Shown here piece after piece: positions 1,639-31,091 of a DNA stretch of 34,033 bases (positions are counted from its first letter, which is position 1; the number at the start of each line of letters is the position of its first letter). Origin of the DNA: Candidatus Aminicenantes bacterium (lineage in GTDB: Bacteria; Acidobacteriota; Aminicenantia; UBA2199); NCBI GenBank assembly GCA_030639705.1, contig DAOWKX010000008.1, positions 1 through 34,033 on the forward strand. The letters are read 5' to 3'. The notes beneath the pieces are model-generated. The model was not told the origin of the DNA. It ran no database searches and worked only from the letters and a program-made list of their open reading frames with translations. The translations under genes and the position numbers were made by a program.

Positions 1639-2076
1639 ATGAGTACTGAAGAAGGAACCATCACCAAAGCGGCCGGGAACAAAGCCTGGGTTCTTGTGGC
1701 GAGAAGTGAAATGTGTGATTGCTGTGGAAGCAAGGGAATCTGTCATACTCTCGGAGGGGGAAAAAATATGGAAGCCGAAGCTCTAAATACTGCAGGTGCC
1801 AAGGTGGGAGATAGAGTAAGGATAAAAATAAAGACCGGGACCTTATGGAAAATTTCCCTTCTGTTTTATATGATTCCTGTAATTGCTCTTGTACTTGGAG
1901 CCCTGGTGGGAATAAAGATTGGCACCCGAATCCACGCCGATCCGGAATTATTTTCCGCACTATCAGCCATAGTGTTTGCGGGTCTTTCTTTTGCAATTAT
2001 CAAATTAATTGCCAACCGGCTGCAGGATAAAAAAGATTACATCCCGGAAGTTGAGAGGATTCTCTCCCAGGGATAG
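1639..2076 (+). CDS. rseC: RseC/MucC-family (SoxR-reducing-system) membrane protein
   Basis: 145 aa. The N-terminal soluble part has a Cys cluster (CDCCGSKGIC), followed by two TM helices. This is the typical RseC architecture, a family often found next to rnf genes. Confidence 0.7.
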   Translation: MSTEEGTITKAAGNKAWVLVARSEMCDCCGSKGICHTLGGGKNMEAEALNTAGAKVGDRVRIKIKTGTLWKISLLFYMIPVIALVLGALVGIKIGTRIHADPELFSALSAIVFAGLSFAIIKLIANRLQDKKDYIPEVERILSQG

Positions 2077-2097: not shown

Positions 2098-2281
2098 TTA
2101 TTTATTTTCTTTATCTTCTTCTGATTCTTCTTCTTTATCGTCTTTCTTGATTGAGTCCTTGAAATTTTTAATCCCTTCTCCCAAACCTTTGGCCAGTTCA
2201 GGAATTTTTTTTTCCCCCGAAAAGCAAGGCTATAATGACAAAAATAATTAATATTTCCCATATTCCAAAAGATCCAAACAT
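2098..2281 (-). pseudogene. tatA: Twin-arginine translocase subunit TatA/E, interrupted by a 1-nt insertion in an A9 homopolymer
   Basis: From ATG 2281 the frame reads [25 protein letters not shown], then hits NS-stop. Dropping one A of the A9 run (plus-strand T9 at 2205-2213) gives ...[40 protein letters not shown]. That is the canonical TatA TM helix, FG-KK hinge and amphipathic helix. The span is 184 nt (3n+1). The A9 count is corroborated by ORF-track frame 2037..2261 (..RGKKKF..). Confidence 0.8.
2205..2213. repeat. T9/A9 homopolymer at the tatA frameshift site
   Basis: ggaaTTTTTTTTTccccc read directly from the sequence. Confidence 0.95.
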
Positions 2282-2387: not shown

Positions 2388-4184
2388 TTATTCAATGGCT
2401 CTGCTGGGGCAAACCCCAATACAGATTCGGCATTGAATACATTTTTCTTTATCAATAAAGGCAACTTTGCCTTTTTCCCAGACAATGGCATTACTTTCAC
2501 ATGACCTGGCACACAGTCCACATTTTATACAAAGTTCGGGGATCACGCGGAATTTCAGGAGTGCCGGGCAAACATGAGCCGGGCAACGTTTTTCAAGAAT
2601 GTGAGCTTCATATTCATGCCTGAAATATTTAATGGTGGTTAAAACCGGGTTCGGTGCGGTCTTTCCCAGACCACAGAGTGCGGCATCAATGATGGTTTCT
2701 GACAAACGCTCTAGTGTGTCAAGATCCTCAATCTTCCCGTTTCCGTCACAAATTCTTTCGAGTATCTCCAGCATCACTTTTGTCCCCACTCGGCAGGGGG
2801 TACATTTTCCACAACTTTCTTCAGCCGTGAAGTTGAGAAAAAATTTGGCAATATCAACCATGCAACTGGTCTCATCCATGACCACCATACCGCCAGAGCC
2901 CATGATGGCACCGGTTTTATTTATGGATTCATAATCAATGGGAATATCAAACATGCTCTCGGGAATACACCCACCCGAGGGGCCGCCCAGCTGAGCCGCC
3001 TTAATCCTTCTATTTTTAATTCCGCCTCCTCCGATCTCAAAGATCACCTTGCGCAATGACATTCCCATTGGAACTTCAACAAGTCCGGTATATTTCACTT
3101 TCCCGGCCAAGGCAAAGACTTTGGTCCCTTTACTCTGGGGAGTCCCGATTGAGGCATAGGCTTCGGGCGAATCAATAATAATCCTTGGGAGATTGGCCAG
3201 AGTTTCAACGTTATTCACCACCGTGGGTTTCTGAAACAATCCTTTAATCGGAGGAAAAGGGGGTTTTGGCCTGGGCATTCCCCGCTGATCTTCAAGGGAA
3301 GCGATCAGAGCTGTTTCTTCACCGCATACAAAAGCGCCGGCACCCTCTCTGATGCTGATGTCAAATGAAAATCCGCTGTCCAGGATGTTCTCTCCTAAAA
3401 AAAAATTTTCTCTGGCATCGGATAAGGCCTTATCCAGAGTTTTTAAAGCAAGGGGATATTCAGCCCGGCAATAGATAAAGCCCTCGGTGGCACCGATCGA
3501 ATAGCCGGCGATTATCATCCCCTCCAATACCGAATGAGGGTCTCCTTCAAGAATCGAGCGATCCATAAAAGCACCCGGATCACCCTCATCTGCATTACAA
3601 ATCACATATTTAATATCGGATTGTACATTTCGACAGAAGGTCCACTTCTTTGCCGTGGGGAATCCTGCCCCGCCACGTCCTCTGATACCTGATTTACCAA
3701 TCTCTTCGATCACCTCTTCCGGTTTCATTTTTAAAATTATTTTTATCGCTTTATAGCCATCATTATCAAGATAATCCGATATTCTAAAGGGATCGATATT
3801 TCCACAATTTCTCAGGACAATCTTCACCTGATCCTTGATCACCGAATACTCATTGGTAAAAGGTACACCCTGGTAAATTGTTATAGTGGCGTTTTCCGGG
3901 GGATATTGAAACAGAACATGCTTCTTTATTATCTCCCCATTATTGATGGTTTTCTCGATAATATTGGGAACCGATTCATCGGTAATATTCCCGTAAGTTA
4001 AACGGGTCCAGCCATCGATTTCTATCTCCGCAATCACTTCCTGGGAACACATTCCGATACAGGCGGTTGATCCCAGCTCAATAGTAAGGTTATGCTTTTT
4101 TATCTCATCTTCAAATGCCTGATAGACGTCCTCACCACCTGCGGCTCTTCCACAGGTTGCCATTCCTATCGTTATCTTTGACAT
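2388..4184 (-). CDS. NuoF-like NADH/FMN-binding flavoprotein, HydB/HndC type (N-terminal thioredoxin-like [2Fe-2S] domain, C-terminal 2x[4Fe-4S] ferredoxin domain)
   Basis: 598 aa. Motifs: RGRGGAGFPTAKKW, NADEGDPGAFMDR, ESCGKCTPCR (N3 cluster), the N-terminal Cys pattern CGRAAG...CIGMC, and C-terminal CIKCGLCARSC and CIQCRICIGVCP. Confidence 0.9.
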   Translation of the reverse strand: MSKITIGMATCGRAAGGEDVYQAFEDEIKKHNLTIELGSTACIGMCSQEVIAEIEIDGWTRLTYGNITDESVPNIIEKTINNGEIIKKHVLFQYPPENATITIYQGVPFTNEYSVIKDQVKIVLRNCGNIDPFRISDYLDNDGYKAIKIILKMKPEEVIEEIGKSGIRGRGGAGFPTAKKWTFCRNVQSDIKYVICNADEGDPGAFMDRSILEGDPHSVLEGMIIAGYSIGATEGFIYCRAEYPLALKTLDKALSDARENFFLGENILDSGFSFDISIREGAGAFVCGEETALIASLEDQRGMPRPKPPFPPIKGLFQKPTVVNNVETLANLPRIIIDSPEAYASIGTPQSKGTKVFALAGKVKYTGLVEVPMGMSLRKVIFEIGGGGIKNRRIKAAQLGGPSGGCIPESMFDIPIDYESINKTGAIMGSGGMVVMDETSCMVDIAKFFLNFTAEESCGKCTPCRVGTKVMLEILERICDGNGKIEDLDTLERLSETIIDAALCGLGKTAPNPVLTTIKYFRHEYEAHILEKRCPAHVCPALLKFRVIPELCIKCGLCARSCESNAIVWEKGKVAFIDKEKCIQCRICIGVCPSRAIE

Positions 4185-4201
4185 TTACATTCCCTTCTGT
4201 T

Positions 4202-4699
4202 TTATTCCGCAGCCTCGCGATACATATCAATGATCTTTCTAATTTTATTCACATCCAGTTTACCATAAACCCTGTCATTGACCATCATGGCCGGAGCCAA
4301 GGCGCAGCAACCAAGACAGGCGACATCCTGAACTGTAAAAAGACCATCTTTGGTGGTATCTTCAATTTCACTTATCCCAATATGAGAATTTAAGCTTTCA
4401 CCCAGAATAGTGGCGCCTCCCACATGACAGGCCGTACCGTGACAGACTTTAACAATATTTTTGCCCACGGGTTTGGTCCTGAACTGGGCATAAAAAGTAA
4501 TAACCCCATATATATGACTCTCGGAAACATTCATTTTTTCGGAGAGATATTTTATCGAAAATTCAGGCACATAGCCAAACCGGGTCTGAATCTGTTGTAG
4601 GTAAATCATCAGAGATTTTTTTTGTTTATAATTATAGTAAATGGATTCCACGACTTCAATATCAGTTTTCGAGGGGTTTGTTGGTTCAGGCATACTCAC
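4202..4699 (-). CDS. NuoE-like [2Fe-2S] thioredoxin-fold subunit (HydC/24-kDa type)
   Basis: 165 aa with the Cys pattern VCHGTACHV...CLGCCALAP typical of NuoE/HydC. A GTG start at 4699 overlaps the upstream stop (GTGA); an alternative ATG lies at 4693. Confidence 0.88.
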   Translation of the reverse strand: MSMPEPTNPSKTDIEVVESIYYNYKQKKSLMIYLQQIQTRFGYVPEFSIKYLSEKMNVSESHIYGVITFYAQFRTKPVGKNIVKVCHGTACHVGGATILGESLNSHIGISEIEDTTKDGLFTVQDVACLGCCALAPAMMVNDRVYGKLDVNKIRKIIDMYREAAE

Positions 4700-6732
4700 T
4701 CACGCTCCTTAAACATTTTGGCTGTAATATCCTTCATACCCTTACATTTCATACACAATATTACCTGATAATTTATTCTTCTAAAGACCTCAGGTAGTGA
4801 AAGATCAATTTGATGAGGAATATCCGGTTTCTCTATTTTAATACCTGCCCTTTCCAACCTTTCATAATCAATCTCTTTTAAATGATCATATGTCTGTGCG
4901 ATTTCTTTCTCCCATATGTCTTCTGCGGTATTCATTTCCCAATTGTGACCCAATTTTTTTGCCAATTCTCTGAAAATCCACCAGGTGGGTTTTGCTTCTC
5001 CCGGTGAATCAACTGCTTTCCTGATCCGATTGATCCGGTAATCCGAACTGATGGTAGACCCATCATATTCCACCCAGACCGAAGCAGGCAATACAATATC
5101 TGCCTTTTCCTGTATTTCCGTCGGGAAAATATCCTGAACTACCAAAAACTCTAATGAATCGGTGTTAATCATATGAGGGGTCATTGAATATAAAAATTTC
5201 ACTTTATTAAGTTCTGATTTCCTTTTGGGAAAAATCCCCATAATATAAGCACCCACGGTATTATTTTCCCTGGAAATTGAGCAAATTCTCAGGTTTTCTA
5301 TCTTTTTAATATCCGAAATATCCATCCGGGGATCATGAAACACCAGGGTTTCACCTTTGATTTCCTTTTCCAGGCCGGATAAATTCTTCAGCTGAAGATG
5401 GGCAAATTTTGCTATTTCCATGTTTTCGGAATCCACGACAATGAGCCTGGTCCCCTGCAATACCGCCTGTTTAATAAATGTAGCAGCCACTGGATTGTCC
5501 CGTACGATGTCTGTACCCGCCACAACAATTGTTTCTGCTTTTTTTATCTCTTGGTAATCAATCCCCATGAAAGACGGAGGTTCAAAATGAAAAATATTTT
5601 CACTGGTCATAATCTGATTAAAAAATTTTTTTGTCAGAAACAAATCTTCATTGGTATTCTTGGTAGACACAAAACACCCGATTGCCTCACTACCATACTT
5701 TTCTTTGATCCCAGTCATTTTTCTGGCAACTAAATCCAGTGCTTTTTCCCAGTTTGATTCAACCAGTTTTCCATTTTCCCTGATTTTTGGACGGAGCAAT
5801 CGATCATTGGAGTGGATGAAATCAAAGCCGAATCGACCCTTGAAACAAAGCCTTCCCAGATTTGGTTTTGCATCTTCAATCCCATCAACTTTAACAATTT
5901 CATTATCTTTAATGCATAAATCGAGCTGACATCCCACTCCGCAGTAATAACAGGTGGTTTTCACCCGAGTCACATCCCACATTCTGGAGTTGAATCGATT
6001 TCTCTTCTCAAAGAGCGCTCCCACCGGACAACTCTGAACACATTCCCCGCAATAAACACAATCTGAATCAGGAAGGGTTTTGTCTCCTCTCACTACTATC
6101 TTGGCAATATTCCCCCTGTATCCATGGGAAATTGCATTGTTTACCTGAATCTCACAACAGGCCTGGACGCATCTGCCACAGAGAATACACCGTCCAAAAT
6201 CTCTTCCGATTAACGGATCATTATACTCAAGCGGGTATTTGGTGGGGATGCGATCCAATGTTCTCCGGGTAACCTGGTACCGATAGGCCAATGCCTGCAG
6301 TTCACAGCGTCCATAGGCAACACAAATATCATCTGCCCTATCATATTCACTAACTTCCTGCTGGAAATCCGACCATTCTTCAGGAAAATTCCCCCGGACA
6401 GAACAGTTATGGTTCCCGGAAATGAGCAACAATTCAAGAACCATCTTCCGGGCCTTTACAATGCGTGGCGTTTCAGTCGACACCTCCATGTTATCCGCCG
6501 CAGGTGAAGAACAAGCGGCAATGGGCCCCGGTGCTCCTTTCACATCAACGATACATATACGACAGGCCCCGGTGGGAGGAGCTCCTTTCAGATGACAGAG
6601 TGTGGGAATGTATATTTCATTTCTTCTGGCAACCTCAAGGATTGTTTCCCCCGGTTCAAATTCATATTTATTTCCATTAACGGTAATTGTTTTTTTTAAT
6701 TTGCTCATGGTCTCAGATCCATTTTTTTTCAT
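4696..6732 (-). CDS. NuoG-like / formate-dehydrogenase-alpha-like Fe-S subunit with a degenerate, truncated molybdopterin domain
   Basis: 678 aa. It has an N-terminal [2Fe-2S] site (CHLKG...CRIC...C), a His-ligated cluster region (GNHNC...C), CILCGRCVQAC and CVYCGECVQSCP, then a Mo-bisPGD-type 4Fe-4S motif CYYCGVGCQL...C. The position of the catalytic Cys/Sec segment reads SENIFHFEPPSF, with no Cys. There is no C-terminal cap domain. Confidence 0.85.
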   Translation of the reverse strand: MKKNGSETMSKLKKTITVNGNKYEFEPGETILEVARRNEIYIPTLCHLKGAPPTGACRICIVDVKGAPGPIAACSSPAADNMEVSTETPRIVKARKMVLELLLISGNHNCSVRGNFPEEWSDFQQEVSEYDRADDICVAYGRCELQALAYRYQVTRRTLDRIPTKYPLEYNDPLIGRDFGRCILCGRCVQACCEIQVNNAISHGYRGNIAKIVVRGDKTLPDSDCVYCGECVQSCPVGALFEKRNRFNSRMWDVTRVKTTCYYCGVGCQLDLCIKDNEIVKVDGIEDAKPNLGRLCFKGRFGFDFIHSNDRLLRPKIRENGKLVESNWEKALDLVARKMTGIKEKYGSEAIGCFVSTKNTNEDLFLTKKFFNQIMTSENIFHFEPPSFMGIDYQEIKKAETIVVAGTDIVRDNPVAATFIKQAVLQGTRLIVVDSENMEIAKFAHLQLKNLSGLEKEIKGETLVFHDPRMDISDIKKIENLRICSISRENNTVGAYIMGIFPKRKSELNKVKFLYSMTPHMINTDSLEFLVVQDIFPTEIQEKADIVLPASVWVEYDGSTISSDYRINRIRKAVDSPGEAKPTWWIFRELAKKLGHNWEMNTAEDIWEKEIAQTYDHLKEIDYERLERAGIKIEKPDIPHQIDLSLPEVFRRINYQVILCMKCKGMKDITAKMFKERE

Positions 6733-8735
6733 GCGGGAATCTCACTTTTCTCATTCTCTGATATAGTCTTTTTGTAACATATCAGCCCACAATTCAAACA
6801 CCTTCTGGCTTGATACTTTGCCTGGTCTTCACTCAAGGTAACCTGGTTATTAATAATTCCCCTGGGTGTTTTCAATTGGTCAACATTGAGTATTTCAAAA
6901 ACATTCTGGACTTCTTTCTCATCCATCAGCACACCGGATTCCGGAGAAATCTCTTCACCTGATATATGCTGATGAATGGCTCTGGCCATTTTTCTTCCTA
7001 TTCTGACTGCTACAACCACCCCGGTGAGATCAGTGGGTCTTCCGGCTTCTCCAATGGTAAAAATTCCAATTTCTGATTCTACGGGAAGTACCTTTATGAT
7101 CTCCACAGTCTTCCATTTGCCTTTTTCCCCTTTTTCAAAAAGCATCTCAGGATATCGACCCGAACCCACAATCAGATTATCCAAATTCAATTTTTCACTT
7201 TTTCCATCAGAGTGAATCAAAGACAGGGTTTTCAAATGACCATCCTCGCCTTCCAATTCCATGGGGATTGCTGAAAATATATACCTTACCTGATCGGTAT
7301 CGAATAACTTTATATTTTTAAGTTCAGCTTCAGTTTTTGAAAAGGGAAAGACAATGGTTATGTTTTCCGCACCTTTTTGCAGACAAATATTGGCTGCCTT
7401 AGACGATGTGTTTCCTCCTCCCAGGATAACAATTTTTTTATTTATGGACACTTTTAACTTTTTTGAAGCGGCAATTAAAAAATCAATCAACAGATAAGTT
7501 CCCGGAATGGTTTCCTCAACCTTACTCCCGCCTCTCAGAATCTGTCTGCTGTCCCAGCCGCCAGTTGTCATCAATGCCATATCAAATTCCTCTGAGAATA
7601 GTACTCCCAGGGAAAAATCTATGCCCATCACCTTTCCGGTTTCAGCTTCAATACCTGTTTCCAGAATCCCCTGAATCTCCCAGTCCAGAACCTTCCGGGG
7701 AAGCCTGTCTTCGGTGATCACATATCTTAAAATCCCGCCTAATTTATCCGTAGCTTCAAAAACCGTGGGAATGTGTCCCAGACGTCGTAAATAATAAGCT
7801 GCTGTTAATCCCTCAACTCCGCCGCCAACAATTGCGATTTTCTTTCCGGTTGCAGGTGGTAAATAAGTGGGTAACGCCCTCTGATTGGTTTTCATCTCAT
7901 ATTCTGTTACAAACTTCTTCAAGGCATTGATTCCCACCGGTTCATCAATCAGATTTCGTCTGCACTCGAATTCACAGGGCGCCGGACAAATCCAGCCACA
8001 TATCAGTGGAAAGGGATTTTTTTCTTTTATCACCCGAACCGACTCCAGATAATTTCCCTCAGAGATCTGTCGAATGTACTCGGGAATATCTATTTCTGCC
8101 GGGCAATTTCGCTGGCAGGGTGCCGTACATTCCGTCACTTTATTATCGGATAGAACCCGTCTGGTAGCAGAAGAAATGGTGATAATTCCCTTGGGGCAAA
8201 TTTCAGCACATATACCACATCCGGTGCAGCGATCTATATTCACAACCGGTAAATTGTTTTCCCCCATCGAAAGGGCATTAAATGGACAGGCTTGCACACA
8301 GGTAGCCAATCCCAGACAACCAATATTGCATTCCTTACTGCCCCCATACAGGAGCATCGCTGCCCGGCAATCATAAACCCCATCATAGGTATATTTCAAA
8401 TCTGCGTCCTGGAAACCATAATAGCAACCGGGTTTGGAAATATCAGGCTCCTTTGCCTCAACCTTTTGACCCATTACCTCTGCAACCTGCAGAGCAATTT
8501 CAAAACCACCTGCCGAACATACATCCACTTCTGCTTTGCTCATAACTACTGCCTCAGCAGCTGCTGCACATCCGGCATAACCGCATCCACCGCAATTGGC
8601 TCCCAGTAATGCCTCCTCAACCTGCTCGATCCTGGGATCCTCCCATACATAAAATACCTTGGAAGCAATCGCCAGCATGACAGAGGCCAGTAATCCCAAT
8701 CCCAACAGCATTAGAAATGAGTTTAAAATAATCAT
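6729..8735 (-). CDS. rnfB: RnfB fused to a GltD/NfnB-like FAD/NAD(P)H oxidoreductase
   Basis: 668 aa. Residues 1-200 carry a TM anchor, the RnfB N-terminal Fe-S domain (GANCGGCGYAGC...C), and 2 x 4Fe-4S (CLGLATCVQACP, CTGCGICAEICP). Residues ~200-668 carry the GltD alpha-helical ferredoxin domain (CQRNCPAEIDIPEYI...CGWICPAPCEFEC), an FAD GxGxxG site (IAIVGGGVEGLTAA...EATDKLGG), and a second dinucleotide site (IVILGGGNTS). The stop overlaps the next start (ATGA). Confidence 0.85.
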   Translation of the reverse strand: MIILNSFLMLLGLGLLASVMLAIASKVFYVWEDPRIEQVEEALLGANCGGCGYAGCAAAAEAVVMSKAEVDVCSAGGFEIALQVAEVMGQKVEAKEPDISKPGCYYGFQDADLKYTYDGVYDCRAAMLLYGGSKECNIGCLGLATCVQACPFNALSMGENNLPVVNIDRCTGCGICAEICPKGIITISSATRRVLSDNKVTECTAPCQRNCPAEIDIPEYIRQISEGNYLESVRVIKEKNPFPLICGWICPAPCEFECRRNLIDEPVGINALKKFVTEYEMKTNQRALPTYLPPATGKKIAIVGGGVEGLTAAYYLRRLGHIPTVFEATDKLGGILRYVITEDRLPRKVLDWEIQGILETGIEAETGKVMGIDFSLGVLFSEEFDMALMTTGGWDSRQILRGGSKVEETIPGTYLLIDFLIAASKKLKVSINKKIVILGGGNTSSKAANICLQKGAENITIVFPFSKTEAELKNIKLFDTDQVRYIFSAIPMELEGEDGHLKTLSLIHSDGKSEKLNLDNLIVGSGRYPEMLFEKGEKGKWKTVEIIKVLPVESEIGIFTIGEAGRPTDLTGVVVAVRIGRKMARAIHQHISGEEISPESGVLMDEKEVQNVFEILNVDQLKTPRGIINNQVTLSEDQAKYQARRCLNCGLICYKKTISENEKSEIPA

Positions 8736-8748
8736 AACCGTCTCTCGA

Positions 8749-9348
8749 TCATTTTATCATTAGCGCTTGAAGAGAATTATCAATCCCCATAAATCCATAA
8801 AAAGCCAGCGCCATCAGTCCTGCCGTCACCAGTGCTATGGCAGTATCCTGAAGTACTTTTGGAATATATGCAATCTCAAATCTTCCCCGGATGCCCGCAA
8901 ACAAAATCAATGCCAGTGCAAATCCCACTCCCGAAAACAGGGCATAAAACAAACTCTGTAAAAAATTGAATTCATTATTAATACACAAGACCGCAACCCC
9001 CAGTATCGCACAATTGGTGGTAATCAGGGGGAGAAAAATTCCCAGTGCTTTATACAGGGCCGGCACTATTTTCTTTAAGAACATCTCGATTAGCTGAACC
9101 AAAGAAGCAATAACCAGGATAAACACAATGGTCTGAAGGTATTCAATCTTAAGGAGAACCAGCAGGTAATGATGTACAAACCAGGTGATACTGGTCGCAA
9201 AGGTTATAACAAATATGACCGCCATTCCCATACCGGTGGCGGTTTCCATCTTTTTGGAAACACCCATGAAAGGACAATTTCCCAGGTATTGGGCCAGTAA
9301 AATATTTTTTACCAAAATAGCATTGATGGCCAGTATAATATATTCCAT
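8749..9348 (-). CDS. rnfA: Rnf complex subunit A
   Basis: 199 aa polytopic membrane protein. Motifs LAQYLGNCPFMGVSKKMETA and TTNCAILG are typical of RnfA/NqrE. Confidence 0.9.
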   Translation of the reverse strand: MEYIILAINAILVKNILLAQYLGNCPFMGVSKKMETATGMGMAVIFVITFATSITWFVHHYLLVLLKIEYLQTIVFILVIASLVQLIEMFLKKIVPALYKALGIFLPLITTNCAILGVAVLCINNEFNFLQSLFYALFSGVGFALALILFAGIRGRFEIAYIPKVLQDTAIALVTAGLMALAFYGFMGIDNSLQALMIK

Positions 9349-9363
9349 TGTGATTACTCCATA

Positions 9364-9957
9364 TTATTTTTTGGGGAATAGATTAATTAAAGCCAAAATC
9401 AGTCCCAGACATACAAATGCTCCGGGCGCACTTACCATAAAGGCAAACGGTTCATAAGAATTCCACATCACCTGCATTCCCAGAAAGGTTCCTTTACCCA
9501 GTATTTCTCTGATTGTGCTGATCAATATCAGAGAAAGGGTAAATCCCAATCCGATCCCCAATCCGTCAGCGGCGGACAGGTAGATCGGATTTTTCGAAGC
9601 AAAGGCCTCGGCTCTACCCAGGATAATGCAATTCACCACAATAAGATTAATAAACAACCCCAGCTGTTTTGAAATTGAAAAAAAATAGGCTTTCATAACC
9701 AGCTCAACGATAACCACAAATGTCGCAATAATAATAATATAAGATGCAATTCTGACTTTTTTGGGAATGATTTTCTTTATGGAAGAAATAATCACATTTG
9801 AAAAAAACAGGACAAAAGTCGTACTGAGCCCCATACCGATTCCATTTTCGACAGCTGTGGTAACAGCCAACACCGGGCATAAACCCAGTACCAGCCTGAA
9901 GGGTGGTAAAATCTCCCAGAAGCCTTTTAAAAATTCATGCGCTATCGTCTTTTTCAT
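9364..9957 (-). CDS. rnfE: Rnf complex subunit E
   Basis: 197 aa. Motifs LVLGLCPVLAVTT and VVNCIILGRAEAFA are typical of RnfE/NqrD. Confidence 0.9.
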   Translation of the reverse strand: MKKTIAHEFLKGFWEILPPFRLVLGLCPVLAVTTAVENGIGMGLSTTFVLFFSNVIISSIKKIIPKKVRIASYIIIIATFVVIVELVMKAYFFSISKQLGLFINLIVVNCIILGRAEAFASKNPIYLSAADGLGIGLGFTLSLILISTIREILGKGTFLGMQVMWNSYEPFAFMVSAPGAFVCLGLILALINLFPKK

Positions 9958-9978
9958 TATTATAAAATACCGTGCAGG

Positions 9979-10554
9979 TTATTTTTTTTTCACAACCTGA
10001 TCCTTAATGGCAGAATATAAGACAATACTTTGCTCCACAGCTGAACATACGGCTCTCGATGATATTGTGGCTCCGGAAACCGCATCAATAGTCCCGTTAT
10101 CCTTTTTTACCTTAAAGATTTCAGAAATGACTCTATCTTTAAAATTGTTTGTAAAAATTGGCTCTGAAACCCGTGCCCCCAAACCGGGAGTTTCCTGGTG
10201 GGTTAAAATTCCGATTCCGGTAAGCCTGTCTTTCTCCAGATCAAATCCCACCATCACCCCTATTTTGCCTTTATAACCCATGGCCGTCATCTCAAAGGCA
10301 ATGGCCCAGATCTGGCCATTTTTTTTCCCCAAAAAAACAATTTTTATTTCCTGGTCGACAGTAATCTCCTCTCTGTCCTGTATGATATCATTGGTTGATG
10401 AGGCCAGCACATTATTTAAAGCAGGCCCCTGAACATTCACCAAAATTTGTTCTTCAATCCGTTTTTCAGTACCTTTCTTGACTGCAGCCAGCAGCAGACC
10501 GCAAACGGCTGCAATGGCCGTTAACACTGCTACCATCCTGATATACTCTCTCAT
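9979..10554 (-). CDS. rnfG: Rnf complex subunit G (FMN_bind domain)
   Basis: 191 aa with an N-terminal anchor, ETPGLG, and the flavinylation motif DAVSGATISS retained. Confidence 0.9.
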   Translation of the reverse strand: MREYIRMVAVLTAIAAVCGLLLAAVKKGTEKRIEEQILVNVQGPALNNVLASSTNDIIQDREEITVDQEIKIVFLGKKNGQIWAIAFEMTAMGYKGKIGVMVGFDLEKDRLTGIGILTHQETPGLGARVSEPIFTNNFKDRVISEIFKVKKDNGTIDAVSGATISSRAVCSAVEQSIVLYSAIKDQVVKKK

Positions 10555-11522
10555 TCTGCCCTGCTTTCAATATGAATAAATTCCACGGGTTTTGATCTTT
10601 TCTTGAGCTTATCCAGTAAGGGAGTGAATAAATTCATGATTAAGATAGCAAAAAACACCCCGTCAGGATAAACACTCCACACCCTGAATATAATTGTCAG
10701 GAAACCACATCCGAACCCAAACACAATCATTCCCCATCTGTTAAAAGGCGAGCTTGCATAATCGGTAGAAAGAAAAAATATCCCTAACATTAAATTCCCG
10801 GTAAACAGGTGAAACAGCGGATTGGCATATTGATTATTGTTTAACAGCCAGAAAACCGAGGATACAACCAATATCCCCACCATGAAGGATACCGGAATTT
10901 CCCAGGCAATGACTCCTCTTAATAATAGATAAATACCGCCAATCAGAAGAAGCAGAACGGCAACGGTTCCAATTCCACCCACCTGCTTACCCAGGAGAAA
11001 ATCCAGAAGTTTAAACTCTGAAATGAATTCAGTTCCCCCTTTCTTTAAAAGGGTCAGGGGATAGCGGAAACTATATCCCAGATCATAATTGACAGATGCC
11101 AGATCAAGATTATAATAAGCAGGCCATGAAATCCTGGTGATTGCCCATCCGACCAGAACAGGACTCAATGGATTGCTGCCCAGGCCTCCAAAAATCTCCT
11201 TACCGATAAAAATACATAAAAACGCCCCCATGATAACCAGCCAGTAAGGAACACTGGGAGGGAGTAGCATGGCAAAGAGCAGACCGATAACAACGGCGCT
11301 ACCGTTGGTAATGGTTGATTCTTTTCCAAACAGTTTCCGAATGAAGTATTCACTGGCAATGGTTGTCACCACTGAGAGTGAGATGATTCTGGCCGCATGA
11401 AGGCCGTAGGTATACACAGCATAAATCAGGACCGGGAGCAAGGCAATTATCAAGTGGCTATGAATTTTGGTGATACTATCTTTATTGTTCCAGTGGGGAG
11501 GACTTGACACAATTAATTTCAT
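10551..11522 (-). CDS. rnfD: Rnf complex subunit D (divergent: the flavinylation Thr is replaced)
   Basis: 323 aa polytopic protein of the NqrB/RnfD type (GGLGSNPLSPVL, FLSTDYASSP, VYPDGVFFAILIMN). The segment aligned to the S-x-A-T-P-L motif reads SFRYPL (11055-11072). Confidence 0.85.
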   Translation of the reverse strand: MKLIVSSPPHWNNKDSITKIHSHLIIALLPVLIYAVYTYGLHAARIISLSVVTTIASEYFIRKLFGKESTITNGSAVVIGLLFAMLLPPSVPYWLVIMGAFLCIFIGKEIFGGLGSNPLSPVLVGWAITRISWPAYYNLDLASVNYDLGYSFRYPLTLLKKGGTEFISEFKLLDFLLGKQVGGIGTVAVLLLLIGGIYLLLRGVIAWEIPVSFMVGILVVSSVFWLLNNNQYANPLFHLFTGNLMLGIFFLSTDYASSPFNRWGMIVFGFGCGFLTIIFRVWSVYPDGVFFAILIMNLFTPLLDKLKKRSKPVEFIHIESRAE

Positions 11523-12703
11523 TTTTCCTCTTCTTGCTCAATTTTTTCTAATTCACTTTTCGCCAGTCTGATAAACTGTACCAGCGACCGCCCGGACGGA
11601 CAGTGGTAAGCACATAAACCACATTCAATACAATCATACACATCAAGCTCCAGACATTCTTCAAAATGGGAAAACTCGGAAAATCTGCAGATGAGATTGA
11701 CATCCAGTTCCGCCGGACAAACCCGTACACATTTTCCACAATTGATACAGGCTTGATTCCGGTTTAAAATTACCTCGCTGGAATCCTGCAAATAGACTAA
11801 ATCGATTGTATCTCCAACCGGAATATCAGTACTGTAACAGGCATCACCCCTGAGTGGACCTCCTAAAATCAGTTTGTCATTATCATGAATATCACTATCC
11901 TTGAATAGATTTTTAATGGGCGTTCCAATTCGAATCCTAATATTTTTACTCTCTTTATTCCCGATGATGGTTACTACTTTATGAACAAATGGCCGACCTT
12001 GTTTCAGAGCAATAACAGCTCCAAATAACTTTTCAACTTTCAAATAAGCACACGCTTCCAAACCAAGCTTATAGTAAATGGTCCGCATGAGAATATCAGG
12101 TAAGCCGTTGGGATAAACCGGATCCACCAAAAAAACATCCGCCTGATCTTCAATAATATCAGCTACCAGATAATCAAGATTTTTGGGGATAGCCAGGACT
12201 ACTTTTTGCGCGGCAGTTAAAAATTTTATTAATTCCAATCCTTCAAGAATACGGTTTTTATTCTCCCTTAATATTTGCTGTTGGATGGTTGCCAGTGGCT
12301 CTGTATCCACGGCACTGATGACAACTGTTTTCGTCTGGGCCAGTTTTTCAGAAAATTTCAGATTACAGCGATTTAACTGTTTTAATATTTCCAGAGGGTC
12401 CTTTTCTAAAAAATCTGGTACCTCTTTTATTGCCGGATCAAATTTTTCATCCTCGGCAACCCTGATCCTCAGAGCCACCCTTTTGCCACCTGCCACCTGT
12501 AATGAATCAATGCTTTTCAGGGTACCGGTAACCGTTGAATGCTCACCCGGAAAAATCTCTTCACCGGTGAGTATTTTTGATCCTTCCTTAAATTTCAGTG
12601 TATCACTACCCGGATCAAATCCTTTTAAAGTGAGAATCACCTCTTCCGGATCCGGGAGATCAGTAATACCCATTTCCTTTATATTTAATGCCAGACTATC
12701 CAT
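11519..12703 (-). CDS. rnfC: Rnf complex subunit C (divergent: lacks the glycine-rich FMN/NADH loop)
   Basis: 394 aa. It has the N-terminal barrel-sandwich domain, an SLBB-like segment (IGTPIKNLF...LILGGPLRG), and C-terminal 2x[4Fe-4S] (CINCGKCVRVCP, CIECGLCAYHCP). Where canonical RnfC has G(L/M)GGAGFPT...NxAECEPY, this protein reads NRCNLKFSEK...SAVDTEPL. Confidence 0.85.
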   Translation of the reverse strand: MDSLALNIKEMGITDLPDPEEVILTLKGFDPGSDTLKFKEGSKILTGEEIFPGEHSTVTGTLKSIDSLQVAGGKRVALRIRVAEDEKFDPAIKEVPDFLEKDPLEILKQLNRCNLKFSEKLAQTKTVVISAVDTEPLATIQQQILRENKNRILEGLELIKFLTAAQKVVLAIPKNLDYLVADIIEDQADVFLVDPVYPNGLPDILMRTIYYKLGLEACAYLKVEKLFGAVIALKQGRPFVHKVVTIIGNKESKNIRIRIGTPIKNLFKDSDIHDNDKLILGGPLRGDACYSTDIPVGDTIDLVYLQDSSEVILNRNQACINCGKCVRVCPAELDVNLICRFSEFSHFEECLELDVYDCIECGLCAYHCPSGRSLVQFIRLAKSELEKIEQEEEK

Positions 12704-12717
12704 TATCTTAATATAAC

Positions 12718-13410
12718 CTACTCTTCTTTATGACAAATTGTACAATCATCGACTCCATCGCTGTGACATTCAATACAATTCTTTCCAATACATCGAACAT
12801 GAACATCGGCATTTTCACAAATCATTTTATATTTAGAGTTGTAGTGACACCGCCTGCAGTTCAGGGGAAAATTTTTCTTATTTTCAATTTTATACCCATG
12901 GTGACAGGTTTCACATTCAATCTCATAGCCATCCGGAGAGGCGTGATCCAGGTGATTAAAAACCACCGGTCCTCCATCGGTATTAAAAATAATTTCCTTT
13001 GGCGTCTTTACTTTTTCAAAATGTTCAGCATTGTGACAGAACTCACACTTTACCGAACCCTGAACATGACATTCCACACAGTTTTTTCCAATACATCTCT
13101 TATGGATGGTTTCATCCCCGCAAGTTTCAACAAATTCTTTATTATAATGACACTCCCTGCAATTCATTTTCACTCTCTCTTTTTGATCGGGTGAATAATT
13201 ATGATGGCATTCCTCACAGGTCGTGTCTTTCAGGGATGAATGATACCCGTGGTCAAAAATGACCCCGCCTCCCTTGGTGAGAAAAGCCACCCGGATGGGT
13301 TCCTTTTCTTTGTCAAAGGCAAATCCCCAGATTGCCAAAATGAAAAGAACAACAGAGAGTAAGATAATGAAAAATTCCTTTTTTTTAGTTAGAAATTTAA
13401 CTTTATCCAT
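12718..13410 (-). CDS. Membrane-anchored octahaem cytochrome c (tandem duplication of a tetrahaem c3-like domain)
   Basis: 230 aa with an N-terminal hydrophobic anchor and eight CxxCH motifs (CEECH, CRECH, CVECH, CEFCH, CETCH, CRRCH, CIECH, CTICH). The two halves align motif-for-motif (V-F-H..H...C..CHH...NCR.CHYN...H.RCIGKNC.ECH...C..CH). It lies 14 nt upstream of rnfC. Confidence 0.9.
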   Translation of the reverse strand: MDKVKFLTKKKEFFIILLSVVLFILAIWGFAFDKEKEPIRVAFLTKGGGVIFDHGYHSSLKDTTCEECHHNYSPDQKERVKMNCRECHYNKEFVETCGDETIHKRCIGKNCVECHVQGSVKCEFCHNAEHFEKVKTPKEIIFNTDGGPVVFNHLDHASPDGYEIECETCHHGYKIENKKNFPLNCRRCHYNSKYKMICENADVHVRCIGKNCIECHSDGVDDCTICHKEE

Positions 13411-13487
13411 CTGATATCAAGTACATACCGGTCATTCTTCCATTAAATTATTGAAAAAAACTTAATTGTGAGAGCAAAATAATTTAG

Positions 13488-13517
13488 ATACTAACATAAG
13501 GAATTTTAGAATGTCAA
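13488..13517 (-). promoter_or_regulatory. Sigma70-type promoter of the cytochrome-rnf-nuoGEF-like operon
   Basis: Minus strand reads TTGACA (13517-13512), an 18-nt spacer ending in TGt, then TAGTAT (13493-13488), about 75 nt upstream of ATG 13410. Confidence 0.45.
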
Positions 13518-13565
13518 GCAAAAATTAGATAAAGTAACTACCCCTCAAAAAAAGCAACAGATTTT

Positions 13566-13952
13566 TTATTCCTTTAAAAGACCACTTATGGTAGCGATTA
13601 AATCATCCGGATCAATCGGTTTTTCCATGAACTTCTCAACCGGTAAAAAACCACCATCTTCTTCAATATTAAATTTAAATTTGGTCATTTGATTGACAGC
13701 AGTTGCCAGTATAATTGGAATGTGTTTATATTTTTCATTCATTTTAACAAATTGAGCGAAATTAAAACCGTCACTATCCTTTTCCATCATAACATCAAGA
13801 ATAATCAAATCAATCTTTTCATTCTCCAGAATCTCCTCAGCTACTTTTATATTGGTGGCCTGGACAACATCATAATTGCTGTGCTCCAAAATAATTTTCC
13901 TAACTTCAAGAACATCAATATCATCATCAATGTCCAGTATTTTCTTTTTCAT
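13566..13952 (-). CDS. Stand-alone response-regulator receiver (CheY-like, no output domain)
   Basis: 128 aa with the acidic pocket DIDDD, a phospho-acceptor in LIILDVMM, and conserved T (ILATA) and K (MEKP). Confidence 0.88.
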   Translation of the reverse strand: MKKKILDIDDDIDVLEVRKIILEHSNYDVVQATNIKVAEEILENEKIDLIILDVMMEKDSDGFNFAQFVKMNEKYKHIPIILATAVNQMTKFKFNIEEDGGFLPVEKFMEKPIDPDDLIATISGLLKE

Positions 13953-13960
13953 TTCTCCTC

Positions 13961-14659
13961 CTAATTCATAAATGGTAATTTTATGGTTATGGTTGTGCCT
14001 TCACCAACGACACTATCGAGATCAATTGATCCCTCATGGTCCTTGATGATCTGCTTGACCAGAGAAAGGCCCAAACCGATACTACCGTCAATATTTTTTC
14101 TGGCCTCCCTTCCCCGGGCAAAAATATTAAATACCTTATCTATATCCTCAGCCGGAATACCTATTCCGGTATCACTTATCTCAATGATAATAAGCTTATT
14201 AAACCTCTCAAAACAACGGATATCAATACTCCCATTTTCTTTATTATATTTCACTGCATTCATAATAATATTATTAAATGCCCTTAAGAGAAATGTATAA
14301 TTTCCAAACACAAATTTCTCCTGACAGGATCTTTGGGAATAATTAATGGTAATCTTTTTTTCATCAGCATAAGGTTTGATAATCGAAAATGATTCGTCAA
14401 TTATATCAAATAAATTTAGTCGTTCACGCTTCATCTGGGATTTATTTTCCAGAACCGTATAATCAAGAATATCTTCCACAATTTTGATGAGGGCCTCAGA
14501 CTTTTTTCTGGCCCGGGAAATGAGCTCCTTCACTTTTTCCGGGTCATCCACATAGCCTTTTTCCACTACAATTAATAAATCGACCACTGCGGATAGAGGA
14601 GCCTTTAAATCATGGGCAATCACCGCAAGGTTTTTAAAATCTTTCTCTATTTTTGGCAT
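13961..14659 (-). CDS. Histidine kinase core (HisKA + HATPase_c) without TM or sensor domain
   Basis: 232 aa with H-box IAHDLKAPLS, N-box NAVKYN, G1 DTGIGI and G2 GLGLSL. The kinase core begins within ~10 residues of the N-terminus. Confidence 0.88.
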   Translation of the reverse strand: MPKIEKDFKNLAVIAHDLKAPLSAVVDLLIVVEKGYVDDPEKVKELISRARKKSEALIKIVEDILDYTVLENKSQMKRERLNLFDIIDESFSIIKPYADEKKITINYSQRSCQEKFVFGNYTFLLRAFNNIIMNAVKYNKENGSIDIRCFERFNKLIIIEISDTGIGIPAEDIDKVFNIFARGREARKNIDGSIGLGLSLVKQIIKDHEGSIDLDSVVGEGTTITIKLPFMN

Positions 14660-14699
14660 CCTTTACTTCTTATTTATAATAATACCCGAAACCATGAAT

Positions 14700-15179: not shown

Positions 15180-15182
15180 ATT

Positions 15183-17233: not shown

Positions 17234-17234
17234 C

Positions 17235-18158: not shown

Positions 18159-18168
18159 TCTTTCCTCC

Positions 18169-22907: not shown

Positions 22908-22954
22908 CCTAGAATCGTCAATCAAGTTTTAAGACTGTCTCAGGAAATCTACCC

Positions 22955-24669: not shown

Positions 24670-24676
24670 TTGACTA

Positions 24677-31047: not shown

Positions 31048-31091
31048 TTTACCTATAAATCAAAATTGAAATCTTATTCTTCCGATAACCC

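Follow-up and report, generated by a model that had tools for sequence, protein, structure and literature searches.

An Aminicenantes operon predicted to combine an Rnf2-type core with a rearranged NfnABC/Stn-type bifurcating module

Within the window, the 34,033-nucleotide stretch of Candidatus Aminicenantes DNA that was analyzed, ten genes encode an octahaem cytochrome c, the Rnf subunits C, D, G, E, and A, an RnfB::GltD fusion, and NuoG-, NuoE-, and NuoF-like proteins (Table 1). Based on their domains and cofactor motifs, we consider it fairly probable that this operon specifies one membrane-bound redox machine, here called Rnf-Bfu, in which an Rnf2-type core is combined with a rearranged NfnABC/Stn-type bifurcating module, and which probably connects NAD(P)H and ferredoxin in the cytoplasm with cytochromes in the periplasm. 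The first part would be an Rnf2-type (Tol2-type) core, with a membrane-anchored periplasmic octahaem cytochrome c, an RnfG with covalent FMN, RnfA and RnfE with the cysteines of an intramembrane cluster, an RnfD without a covalent-FMN site, and an RnfC reduced to a 2x[4Fe-4S] protein without an FMN/NADH site. The second would be a complete, rearranged NfnABC/Stn-type module, whose NfnL domain (GltD-like, binding FAD and NAD(P)H) has been excised from the large subunit and placed at the C-terminus of RnfB, with the remainder of the large subunit (NTD plus FdhA-like scaffold), BfuC, and BfuB encoded directly downstream.

Table 1. Operon genes and flanking features, with positions in the window.
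Feature	Position	Strand	Length (aa)	Support
Candidate sigma70-like promoter match	13488..13517	-		TTGACA, 18-nt spacer, TAGTAT, with TG; 10/12 positions
Octahaem class III (c3-type) cytochrome c	12718..13410	-	230	PF02085, E=3.5e-13
RnfC-like subunit	11519..12703	-	394	TIGR01945 184.7 bits, below 245.95 cutoff
RnfD	10551..11522	-	323	TIGR01946 260.7 bits, above cutoff
RnfG	9979..10554	-	191	NF045876 (RnfG_DVU2794) 236.9 bits, cutoff 205
RnfE, integral membrane	9364..9957	-		TIGR01948 237.6 bits, above cutoff; Cys27, Cys110 retained
RnfA, integral membrane	8749..9348	-		TIGR01943 249.2 bits, above cutoff; Cys25, Cys113 retained
RnfB::NfnL(GltD) fusion	6729..8735	-	668	PF04060, 4Fe-4S dicluster, Fer4_20, Pyr_redox_2
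BfuA-like Fe-S scaffold (NuoG-like)	4696..6732	-	678	Fer2_4, NADH-G, 2x Fer4, Molybdop_Fe4S4, Molybdopterin
BfuC (NuoE/HydC-like)	4202..4699	-	165	PF01257, E=3e-46
BfuB (HydB/NfnB-like NuoF homologue)	2388..4184	-	598	End-to-end alignment, Csac NfnB 9bov_B, E=9e-229
RseC/MucC-family membrane protein	1639..2076	+		PF04246, E=6.7e-30

The ten genes form a single string on the minus strand (2388-13410), spaced by 14, -4, -4, 21, 15, 13, -4, -4, and 17 nt, with ATGA overlaps at 11519-11522, 10551-10554, and 6729-6732, and a GTGA overlap at 4696-4699. Rechecking the reading frames and junctions reproduced the string exactly as originally predicted, and Pfam and NCBIfam profiles agreed with the earlier domain calls for all ten proteins. 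The predicted sigma70-like promoter match is present in the 155 nt of AT-rich sequence that precede the cytochrome gene. However, scanning 15 kb for the consensus returned 62 matches, against 39 expected by chance, with matches of equal quality inside the operon at 8399-8370 and 4659-4631, and the description of this site as the single promoter was therefore not demonstrated. Terminator-like sites occurred at chance level (16 found, 14.3 expected), with nothing convincing inside the operon, in line with the prediction, and none after the last gene. The RseC-family gene lies where it had been reported, although on the opposite strand, convergent to the operon, and with a small TatA-like ORF in between; its homologues adjoin RnfB::GltD in many loci. 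The same window also contains genes for a group-1 periplasmic [NiFe]-type hydrogenase, another multihaem cytochrome, and cytochrome c biogenesis, a setting that, like the tight or overlapping junctions, speaks for Rnf-Bfu.

The cytochrome has eight CxxCH motifs in two tandem tetrahaem units behind a hydrophobic N-terminal anchor or signal (aa 13-32; maximum hydropathy window 2.86 from aa 14), and is likely the periplasmic exit or entry point for electrons. Its homologues precede rnfC in L001, L003, L004, L006, L087, and many Desulfobacterota loci. As predicted, the RnfC-like protein has lost the nucleotide loop: upon alignment to 7zc6_C, the canonical FMN/NADH glycine motif GxGGxxFP falls on NRCNL--KFSEKL, and the motif, present in 18 canonical RnfC sequences, was found in no RnfB::GltD locus. 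RnfC without the FMN loop was also seen with unfused RnfB, in Methanosarcina (L059, L062), Desulfovibrio sp. (L067), and Thermodesulfobacteriota MAGs (L057, L058), and loop loss is thus not specific to the fusion. The proposed transfer of nucleotide chemistry from RnfC to RnfB is therefore plausible, as one reading among others. Both CxxCxxCxxxCP [4Fe-4S] motifs of RnfC are kept and fully conserved, which counts against Rnf-Bfu, as the model leaves their role unexplained. In RnfD, SFRYPLTLLK (roughly nt 11034-11078) stands where [ST]xATPL, the conserved motif for flavinylation, would be expected; in an alignment that took in 58 loci, the flavinylation threonine was missing in the window and in 30 of the 30 fused loci aligned, and present in canonical loci. 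RnfG has a TM helix at its N-terminus and an FMN-binding domain in the periplasm, and keeps its SGAT flavinylation motif (aa 160-163). Since RnfD of the Rnf2 type has no covalent-FMN threonine, the branch from RnfG via RnfD to RnfC looks disabled in these complexes.

The fusion protein starts with a TM anchor (aa 1-25), followed by the RnfB [4Fe-4S] domain (C48/51/56/73) and a 2x[4Fe-4S] segment (C136-C180), and continues into a GltD part with 2x[4Fe-4S] (C203-C258), an FAD loop (GGGVEG, aa 304-309), and an NAD(P) loop (GGGNTS, aa 439-444), ending with a C-terminal Cys triad (C646/649/653). The RnfB half matched 9eri_B and 7zc6_B, and the best PDB match of the GltD half was NfnA (9n5u_A, E=2e-68), followed by 9bov_A and StnC (8oh5_C). 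The earlier claim of a covalent fusion between RnfB and a flavoprotein, here of the GltD/NfnL type, is thus supported. Among 115 homologues all cysteines of the fusion are 90-100% conserved, and those of the RnfB N-terminal domain 100%. The NAD(P) loop carries no RR (NADPH-type) signature and gives no support to the suggested use of NADPH.

Behind the fusion, the BfuA-like protein combines an NTD [2Fe-2S], a His-ligated cluster motif, 2x[4Fe-4S], a Molybdop_Fe4S4 cluster, and a truncated FdhA-like domain. The Sec/Cys-His motif of the latter is deleted, and searches with Pfam and NCBIfam profiles found no pterin-binding Molydop_binding domain, so that, as judged from its motifs, the protein appears to be a non-catalytic FdhA-like Fe-S scaffold. 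BfuC has a thioredoxin-like [2Fe-2S] site (C86/C91/C128/C132), with NfnC (9n5u_C, 9bov_C) and StnA (8oh5_A) as top PDB matches. In BfuB, a thioredoxin-like domain at the N-terminus is combined with an FMN/NAD(H) site (GRGGAGFPT), one [4Fe-4S] of the N3 type, and 2x[4Fe-4S] at the C-terminus, and all cysteine motifs of Csac NfnB (9bov_B) are conserved. For the GltD domain and the NuoE- and NuoF-like proteins alike, the top three PDB matches were chains of 9bov, 9n5u, and 8oh5. This agrees with the predicted assignment of the NuoE/F-like proteins to the bifurcating HydBC/Bfu type and makes the suggested Stn analogy the best fit. The term complex-I N-module, on the other hand, proved a misnomer, as nuo membrane genes are absent from the window and what resembles NuoG is a truncated scaffold of the FdhA type.

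Compared with Csac NfnA (9bov_A), residues 193-505 of the fusion correspond to NfnA 91-397, i.e., the NfnL domain, while residues 19-110 and 114-436 of the NuoG-like protein correspond to NfnA 9-100 and 542-872. This split alignment fits the published NfnA domain order (NTD, NfnL, Fdh-like) and the published electron pathway FAD-A7-A6-A3-A2-A1-[B1-FMN-C1]-B3/B4-Fd (PMC11829005). Between them, the GltD domain and the three Nuo-like proteins account for every domain of the solved NfnABC/Stn (Bfu-family) bifurcating transhydrogenase, with the large subunit split into an NfnL (FAD) domain on RnfB and a remainder forming the BfuA-like scaffold. Since the scaffold has no catalytic site, the BfuABC set would need an external third-substrate module, and the operon encodes just one candidate, the RnfB-borne NfnL domain.

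Adjacency of RnfB::GltD and Bfu genes was kept in nine other independent loci (L002 being a duplicate of L001), in MAGs with several phylum-level labels, and the placement of the nuoGEF-like genes is not accidental. The linkage is conserved within one clade of fusion proteins, whose MAGs bear the labels Aminicenantes, Acidobacteriota, and Spirochaetota, with a single Fibrobacteraceae MAG in addition. Gene order was identical in L003, L004, L006, and L087, varied in L001/L002, L005, L033, and L088, and reduced to a partial remnant in L086; L088 has no BfuA-like gene, so the exact wiring varies. NuoE-NuoF-RnfB::GltD arrangements were found in L008, L013, L018, L021, L023, L025, and L026. In a quick NJ tree of 55 fusion proteins, without support values, the Bfu genes were adjacent in every member of the window's clade whose flanks allowed the comparison, and the classical Bfu-less Rnf2 fusions formed a separate clade (clade A).

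The core has been described before. The Rnf2 or "Desulfobacula toluolica Tol2-type" complex was reported in Desulfobacteraceae in 2013, 2016, and 2025 (Wöhlbrand 2013, as cited in PMC5109826; PMC5109826; PMC11887813 supplement), and is known from proteomic detection, its subunits being formed constitutively and abundantly in cultured strains (PMC5109826, PMC11887813). Both systems have a cytochrome c3 gene first, an RnfC without the FMN/NADH domain, RnfD/G/E/A that are ordinary by family score, and a ~700-aa RnfB in which 200 N-terminal aa resembling small RnfB precede a pyridine-nucleotide oxidoreductase domain; the RnfD flavinylation motif, as found here, is missing in both. However, the published clusters stop at the large rnfB, whereas here it is followed by translationally coupled genes for BfuA-, BfuC-, and BfuB-like proteins. 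In addition, the window's fusion falls outside the Desulfobacterales Rnf2 fusion clade, and its octahaem cytochrome, with a duplicated unit, contrasts with the ~15-kDa tetrahaem protein of Rnf2. With NfnABC/Stn (9bov, 9n5u, 8oh5; PMC11829005, PMC12018979, PMC7483475), the best PDB matches for three of four window proteins, all domains and cofactor motifs are shared: the NfnL FAD domain with two [4Fe-4S], the NTD [2Fe-2S], the Fdh-like Fe-S domain, the BfuC [2Fe-2S], and the FMN, B1, and B3/B4 of BfuB. There, NfnL lies inside BfuA and the known Nfn-Bfu enzymes are soluble, whereas here NfnA is split, NfnL sits on membrane-anchored RnfB with a loop lacking RR, and the genes belong to an rnf operon with a periplasmic cytochrome. 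Mbh-Bfu and Nuo-Bfu likewise place a BfuABC core in the operon of an ion-translocating complex, all predicted from gene order only (PMC9304861), but with Mbh hydrogenase or complex I as partner instead of an Rnf-type core and cytochrome c; an Rnf-linked class is absent from the Bfu enzyme classes in that paper. The Rnf of Methanosarcina acetivorans (MmcA) also has a multihaem cytochrome gene before rnfC, no RnfC FMN loop, and an acceptor other than NAD+, but its RnfB is unfused, its acceptor is methanophenazine or extracellular, and it has no Bfu module. As a correction to the original reading, the combination of the cytochrome, the FMN-less RnfC, and the ~700-aa RnfB is thus already documented; only the Bfu extension appears undescribed, and we found no description of the conserved Rnf2-Bfu combination in the literature.

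It could be argued that the transcript encodes two enzymes, namely an Rnf2-type complex working alone, as in Desulfobacteraceae, and a separate soluble Bfu-type enzyme made of the NuoG/E/F-like proteins, which would trade NADH or ferredoxin with Rnf2 through cytoplasmic pools only. Bfu-less Rnf2 clusters are indeed the commonest arrangement in Desulfobacterota, many of which carry RnfB::GltD with no Bfu genes nearby, showing that the fusion does not need Bfu genes encoded alongside it in order to work, and co-transcription often joins functionally related, physically separate enzymes. Yet the BfuA-like protein has no third-substrate site (no H-cluster, NfnL, Sec/Cys-His, or pterin domain), so a stand-alone BfuABC would have NADH and ferredoxin sites only and could not bifurcate, and the NfnL domain it lacks is exactly the domain found on RnfB. 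Since the linkage is, in addition, kept within one fusion clade across several phylum labels and recurs in other gene orders (NuoE-NuoF-fusion), we regard two separate enzymes as rather unlikely.

A membrane-tethered Nfn/Stn transhydrogenase would instead keep RnfB::GltD and BfuA/B/C together as an NADPH:NAD+/ferredoxin enzyme. The RnfB-like part would then serve only as a membrane anchor or as an internal polyferredoxin acceptor, and electrons would not have to pass through RnfA/E/G to the cytochrome. The full NfnABC domain set is present, and stand-alone NuoE-NuoF-RnfB::GltD-RseC loci (L008, L013, L023), in which no Rnf membrane gene lies within 8-10 kb of the fusion paralogue, indicate that the RnfB-like part may sometimes be an anchor only. 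In the window's clade, however, the fusion always directly follows rnfA, at the rnfB position and as the sole rnfB, the cysteines of the N-terminal domain that docks RnfB to RnfA/E are 100% conserved, and the nucleotide loop lacks the NADPH-type RR signature; the operon of L001 carries two distinct fusions next to each other, suggesting that they attach different modules to a common core. We therefore hold the tethered transhydrogenase to be quite unlikely. Finally, JGI labels some homologues "formate dehydrogenase beta subunit," and one spirochaete variant has a true selenocysteine FdhA behind the Bfu genes, as might be expected if the complex were a canonical ferredoxin:NAD+ Rnf plus accessory proteins, or else a formate dehydrogenase or complex-I N-module linked to Rnf. 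Such identities are contradicted by the motif analysis, given the missing RnfC loop and RnfD threonine, the deletions in the FdhA-like protein, and a window without nuo membrane genes, and are highly improbable.

In Rnf-Bfu, by homology to solved structures, a continuous wire would run from the periplasmic haems via RnfG-FMN and the RnfA/E cluster to the [4Fe-4S] chain of RnfB, and on through the NfnL clusters and FAD and the BfuA clusters to the [B1-FMN-C1] flavobicluster of BfuBC, where NAD(H) and ferredoxin would react. The logic resembles the origin of Na+-NQR (NqrA-F) from Rnf, with a nucleotide-oxidizing flavoprotein as input and a cofactor-poor RnfC/NqrA. By functional analogy, the NQR input subunit also has a TM helix, along with a small Fe-S domain and a flavoprotein domain that oxidizes NAD(P)H, its RnfC homologue has lost nucleotide/cofactor function, and the core A/E/G/D-type subunits are common to both (PMC12174285). 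NqrF, however, is FNR-type and unrelated to GltD, quinone is reduced at NqrB, which keeps its covalent FMN, and NQR has neither a cytochrome nor a Bfu module. The reaction predicted for Rnf-Bfu is reversible and ion-coupled: through bifurcation or confurcation, the pool of cytochrome c in the periplasm would exchange electrons with NADH plus ferredoxin in the cytoplasm, and NAD(P)H at the FAD site may offer a further entry point.

The ten genes of the operon, which encode a cytochrome c, RnfC, RnfD, RnfG, RnfE, RnfA, an RnfB::GltD fusion (RnfB::NfnL) and NuoG-, NuoE- and NuoF-like proteins, form a single minus-strand string with spacings of -4 to +21 nt, and ORF calling returned both the coordinates and the start/stop overlaps (ATGA three times, GTGA once) of the original prediction. 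Every domain call made there was upheld by Pfam and NCBIfam profile assignment. The single promoter that had been placed upstream fared less well: the site is present, but 62 consensus matches were found against 39 by chance, with equally good ones inside the operon. Terminator-like sites occurred at chance level, with none detected after the last operon gene in the terminator scan, and an Rfam scan found no RNA families in the window. The gene string is real, and, since the promoter and terminator scans were at or near chance, the sequence cannot fix the boundaries of its transcript.

Six co-encoded subunits scored as RnfA, B, C, D, E, and G, the membership of an Rnf complex. RnfD, RnfG, RnfE, and RnfA exceeded their NCBIfam cutoffs (the RnfG model being the Desulfovibrio DVU2794-type), the RnfB N terminus reached 84.9 bits with TIGR01944 (cutoff, 68.7), and RnfC was recognizable yet below its family cutoff (184.7 versus 245.95 bits). 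In the class III cytochrome c, 8 CxxCH motifs are spread over two c3-like units in tandem, preceded by a hydrophobic N-terminal anchor. RnfG contains the SGAT motif (DAVSGATISS), cysteine pairs are present in RnfA (C25 and C113) and RnfE (C27 and C110), and both CxxCxxCxxxCP motifs are kept in RnfC. Two flavin sites of a canonical ferredoxin:NAD+ Rnf are missing. At the NuoF-like FMN/NADH site of RnfC, the GxGGxxFP loop found in 18 canonical RnfC sequences of the same alignment is replaced by NRCNL--KFSEKL. At the predicted covalent-FMN threonine of RnfD, SFRYPL stands in place of [ST]xATPL; all canonical loci aligned have the motif, and each of the 30 fused-RnfB loci aligned (within comparison loci L001-L061) lacks it, as do L067 (Desulfovibrio sp., unfused RnfB), L057, and L058. 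No mention of this loss was found in the open-access papers on Rnf and Rnf2 that were searched.

The original prediction had connected the loss of the RnfC loop with the RnfB fusion. This was not supported, since Rnf lineages with an unfused RnfB have lost the glycine loop too, namely, L059, L062 (Methanosarcina), L067 (Desulfovibrio sp. ZJ369), L057, and L058. Among these lineages, only the Rnf of Methanosarcina is known to include a cytochrome subunit.

In a PDB sequence search, the solved Nfn-Bfu transhydrogenases NfnABC and Stn (9bov, 9n5u, and 8oh5), members of the bifurcating (Bfu) enzyme family, were the top three matches of the GltD half of the fusion, the NuoE-like protein and the NuoF-like protein. 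The NuoF-like protein aligned end to end with Csac NfnB (E=9e-229), with all NfnB cysteine motifs kept, and has a canonical GRGGAGFPT loop, an N3-type cluster and a C-terminal 2x[4Fe-4S]. A BfuBC core is present: BfuB (NuoF-like) has the FMN/NAD(H) site, B1, C-terminal B3/B4, and an N-terminal thioredoxin-like domain, and BfuC (NuoE-like) has the C1 [2Fe-2S] cluster, with cysteines C86/C91/C128/C132. The NuoG-like protein has the A1 [2Fe-2S] cluster and Fe-S chain of BfuA, with the motifs C46/57/60/74, H108/C110/C137/C143, two CxxCxxCxxxC, and C261/264/268/296. Csac NfnA consists of an N-terminal domain (NTD), an inserted GltD-like NfnL domain and an Fdh/NuoG-like domain, and electrons in Csac NfnABC follow the path FAD-A7-A6-A3-A2-A1-[B1-FMN-C1]-B3/B4-Fd (PMC11829005). 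The window proteins map piecewise onto NfnA (Table), and the operon therefore encodes every part of NfnABC, with NfnA divided between two proteins and NfnL relocated to RnfB. In NfnABC and Stn, NfnL lies inside the BfuA/NfnA/StnC polypeptide, whereas the BfuA-like protein of the window runs from its NTD straight into the Fdh-like domain.

Two other assignments of the Nuo-like proteins were rejected. The complex-I N-module of the original prediction, an interpretation supported in other parts, does not fit a window with zero nuo membrane genes and a NuoF-like protein with HydB-type N- and C-terminal extensions. A formate dehydrogenase, as given by JGI names and by FdhA as the top PDB match of the NuoG-like protein, would require a Mo/W alpha subunit, and this protein has a 15-residue deletion of the Sec/Cys-His motif and no PF01568 (Molydop_binding) pterin domain. 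Set against L001, a spirochete variant, the NuoG-like protein of the window and those most closely related to it have also lost two larger internal segments and the pterin domain at the C terminus, and the formate dehydrogenase reading appears to hold for the L001 variant only.

The fusion itself comprises a TM anchor, the RnfB [4Fe-4S], 2x[4Fe-4S], two GltD-type [4Fe-4S] motifs, an FAD loop, a nucleotide loop and a C-terminal CxxCxxxC. Metagenomes contain many full-length fusions, with at least 115 proteins of 640-700 aa that are 46-81% identical to the window protein, and across 115 full-length homologues each of the 25 cysteines of the fusion is 90-100% conserved. The C-terminal triad C646/649/653, C104, and C123 are conserved in 100% of these homologues, are explained by none of the standard RnfB or GltD clusters, and might serve as ligands of an additional metal site or of a bridging cluster. 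The nucleotide loop GGG[KN]T is present, and the next strand, V-T-I-V-F-P-[YF]-S-K, is without the RR pair that is the NADPH-specific signature of GltD/NfnB, a signature that is not decisive here.

In PMC5109826 and PMC11887813, a type of Rnf named Rnf2 or "D. toluolica Tol2-type" is described with an RnfB of ~700 aa containing an NAD-binding oxidoreductase domain, a cytochrome c3 gene, and an RnfC missing its FMN and ligand-binding domains; it occurs in all Desulfobacteraceae genomes, its production is constitutive and abundant, and how it works "awaits experimental verification." The window operon has the RnfC without an FMN domain, the cytochrome c3 gene in the cluster and, judging from its Pfam, NCBIfam, and PDB matches against the descriptions in the PMC11887813 supplement and PMC5109826, the large RnfB. 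The operon core is the known Rnf2 type, itself uncharacterized. NuoEFG or Bfu genes are not mentioned in the Rnf2 passages of these two sources, the 2025 Rnf/Nqr review (PMC12174285) does not discuss the large-RnfB type, and the open-access papers searched contained no work that connects NuoEF or Bfu genes with Rnf2 or a large RnfB. In the paper on the Bfu family (PMC9304861), only Mbh-Bfu and Nuo-Bfu are predicted as membrane-bound members. Of the architecture for which the original prediction knew no characterized example, the core had already been described as Rnf2. What appears to be undescribed so far is the split NfnABC (Bfu) module within the operon, together with the missing flavinylation site of RnfD.

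A genome scan for the fusion gave at least 600 pattern matches, and among the best 80 loci it was widespread in Desulfobacterota and present in one Fibrobacteraceae MAG; named strains among these 80 were Desulfosarcina alkanivorans PL12, Desulfocarbo indianensis SCBM, and Salidesulfovibrio brasiliensis JCM 12178. Mapping of the ten window proteins by tblastn onto the fetched loci, extended to 88 loci, revealed four arrangements (Table). The RnfB-GltD fusions followed by nuoG/E/F-like genes that the original prediction proposed to seek in other genomes were found as type I loci and their variants. In a neighbor-joining tree of 55 fusion proteins, built without support values, the window protein grouped with those of L086, L006, L003, L004, L087, L005, L088, L001.1/L002, and L033. 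Bfu genes adjoin the fusion in every member of this clade where the flank allows, and Bfu-less Rnf2 fusions form a separate clade in the same tree; the Bfu linkage is therefore inherited and maintained rather than accidental.

Several comparison loci had peculiarities of their own. The NuoF-like proteins of L004, L087, and L006 (Acidobacteriota-type; 1022-1025 aa) have a second GltD/NfnL-like domain at the C terminus, and their complexes would thus hold two nucleotide flavoprotein domains. L001 has two different tandem RnfB::GltD genes, one per fusion clade. The in-frame TGA in its FdhA-like gene lies in HCARL-U-HSS (the L002 copy was split by the gene caller) and indicates that a formate dehydrogenase subunit with selenocysteine is joined to the same module. 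L086 (CP070627.1, a 9.1-Mb genome labeled Aminicenantes) lacks the cytochrome, rnfC, rnfD, and a full NuoF-like gene, has unrelated flanking genes and is an apparent decayed copy. L005 had seemed from gene calls to be without rnfC and the cytochrome gene, and tblastn located both.

Positions of the features discussed, in the window and in comparison loci from other genomes
Feature	Sequence or locus	Position	Content or counterpart
Ten-gene string	window	13410-2388 (-)
RnfB::GltD fusion	window	6729-8735 (-)	668 aa
Promoter site	window	13517-13488
RnfD SFRYPL	window	~11034-11078	aa ~149-163
Fusion C-terminal triad	window	6777-6800	aa 646-653
NTD	NuoG-like protein	19-110	NfnA (9bov_A) 9-100
NfnL	RnfB::GltD fusion	193-505	NfnA (9bov_A) 91-397
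Fdh-like	NuoG-like protein	114-436	NfnA (9bov_A) 542-872
TatA-like small ORF	window	2098-2281 (-)	promoter-like site 2330-2302; T-run 2205-2213
Response regulator and histidine kinase	window	13566-14659 (-)
Group-3b-like [NiFe] hydrogenase set	window	14700-19191 (-)	maturation protease, large and small subunits, FAD/NAD gamma, 4Fe-4S beta
Overlapping ORFs	window	17235-18368 and 18169-19191	200-nt overlap
Multiheme cytochrome c (c554/c7-like), then ResB and CcsA-type genes	window	22413-26566 (+)	system II biogenesis
Group-1 [NiFe]/[NiFeSe]-type hydrogenase	window	30538-33636 (-)	large and small subunits, maturation protease
Type I (window type)	L003, L004, L006, L087		cytc-rnfCDGEA-fusion-bfuA-bfuC-bfuB
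Type I variants	L033; L001/L002 and L005; L088		L001/L002 and L005 with a full-length FdhA-like gene; L088 without the BfuA-like gene
Type II (classical Rnf2)			cytc-rnfCDGEA-fusion, nothing further; commonest in Desulfobacterota among loci mapped
Type III	L008, L013, L018, L021, L023, L025		nuoE-nuoF-fusion-rseC, no Rnf membrane genes nearby
Type IV			fusion beside divergent FdhA-like gene
NuoF-like with second GltD/NfnL-like domain	L004	14512-17580
NuoF-like with second GltD/NfnL-like domain	L087	14506-17583
NuoF-like with second GltD/NfnL-like domain	L006	~14552-17089
rnfC and cytochrome gene	L005	5470-7091
Full-length FdhA-like gene	L001	15064-17823	in-frame TGA 16192-16194
Full-length FdhA-like gene	L002 (duplicate of L001)	5596-8355
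Decayed copy (apparent)	L086	8177-15034	rnfG-E-A-fusion-bfuA-bfuC, then 139-aa fragment
Fused NuoG-like and NuoE-like	L033 (Fibrobacteraceae MAG)	11973-14828	one 952-aa ORF

What the sequences show directly is which parts and cofactor motifs are present, which solved structures are closest to them, that the linkage is conserved and that RnfC and RnfD lack their flavin sites; the electron path proposed here is modeled on solved relatives. The RnfB part would dock on RnfA/E, as in solved Rnf complexes, and electrons would run from its Fe-S chain to the NfnL clusters and FAD, and through the Fe-S chain of the BfuA-like protein to the BfuBC flavobicluster, as in NfnA. Because the RnfG to RnfD to RnfC to NAD+ branch is apparently disabled, we propose that the FMN of RnfG hands electrons to, or takes them from, the octaheme cytochrome. 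The predicted enzyme would connect the periplasmic cytochrome pool with cytoplasmic NADH and ferredoxin by confurcation or bifurcation, with NAD(P)H at the FAD as an additional port and ion translocation in the Rnf core. Taken as a whole, this would be an "Rnf-Bfu" supercomplex and a third membrane-bound Bfu class, in which a split NfnABC-type flavobicluster is hard-wired via RnfB::NfnL and RnfA/E/G to a periplasmic octaheme cytochrome, electron transfer across the membrane and translocation of Na+/H+ would be coupled directly to the confurcation of NADH and reduced ferredoxin (or to the reverse bifurcation of periplasmic, e.g., H2-derived, electrons), and the RnfD/RnfC branch would be only structural or ion-handling. 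We put this forward tentatively, at slightly less than an even chance.

It could instead be argued that the operon encodes two separate enzymes that merely share one transcript. This is weakened by the BfuA-like protein, which has no site for a third substrate and whose absent NfnL is exactly what RnfB carries. The type III loci suggest another explanation, an Nfn/Stn enzyme tethered to the membrane and working without the Rnf core, but in the clade of the window the fusion is the sole rnfB and occupies the rnfB position. Readings as a canonical Rnf, a formate dehydrogenase or complex I are contradicted by the motif analysis.

The genes around the operon would supply plausible periplasmic partners for the predicted enzyme, namely, the window hydrogenases, a further multiheme cytochrome and cytochrome c biogenesis genes. 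The large subunit of the group-1 periplasmic hydrogenase scored 736 bits with NF033181 (cutoff, 600); in sulfate reducers, the redox partner of group-1 hydrogenases is cytochrome c3. The second hydrogenase is cytoplasmic and group-3b-like (sulfhydrogenase/NAD(P)-linked), and, because of the overlap between two ORFs of this set, the TTG start of the ORF at 17235-18368 is probably over-extended. Just ahead of the operon and in its orientation are a response regulator and a histidine kinase, possibly a dedicated regulator pair. Directly downstream is the TatA-like ORF, which has its own RBS and is frameshifted in an A9 homopolymer; removal of one A gives a 60-aa TatA-like protein, and the frameshift is probably an assembly or sequencing error.

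Assembly of all these parts into a single complex would mean that flavin-based electron bifurcation is physically linked both to an ion pump of the Rnf type and to the pool of periplasmic cytochromes. The series of predicted membrane-bound Bfu enzymes (Mbh-Bfu and Nuo-Bfu) would then be extended by a new partner. It would also give a concrete functional hypothesis for the abundant Rnf2 of marine sulfate reducers, in which nucleotides and Bfu proteins dock on the large RnfB, the periplasm is reached through the cytochrome and the flavin branch of RnfD and RnfC is disabled. Finally, it would suggest how fermentative Aminicenantes and Acidobacteriota of sediments could keep NADH, NADPH, and ferredoxin in balance with periplasmic hydrogenases or external acceptors and still conserve energy.
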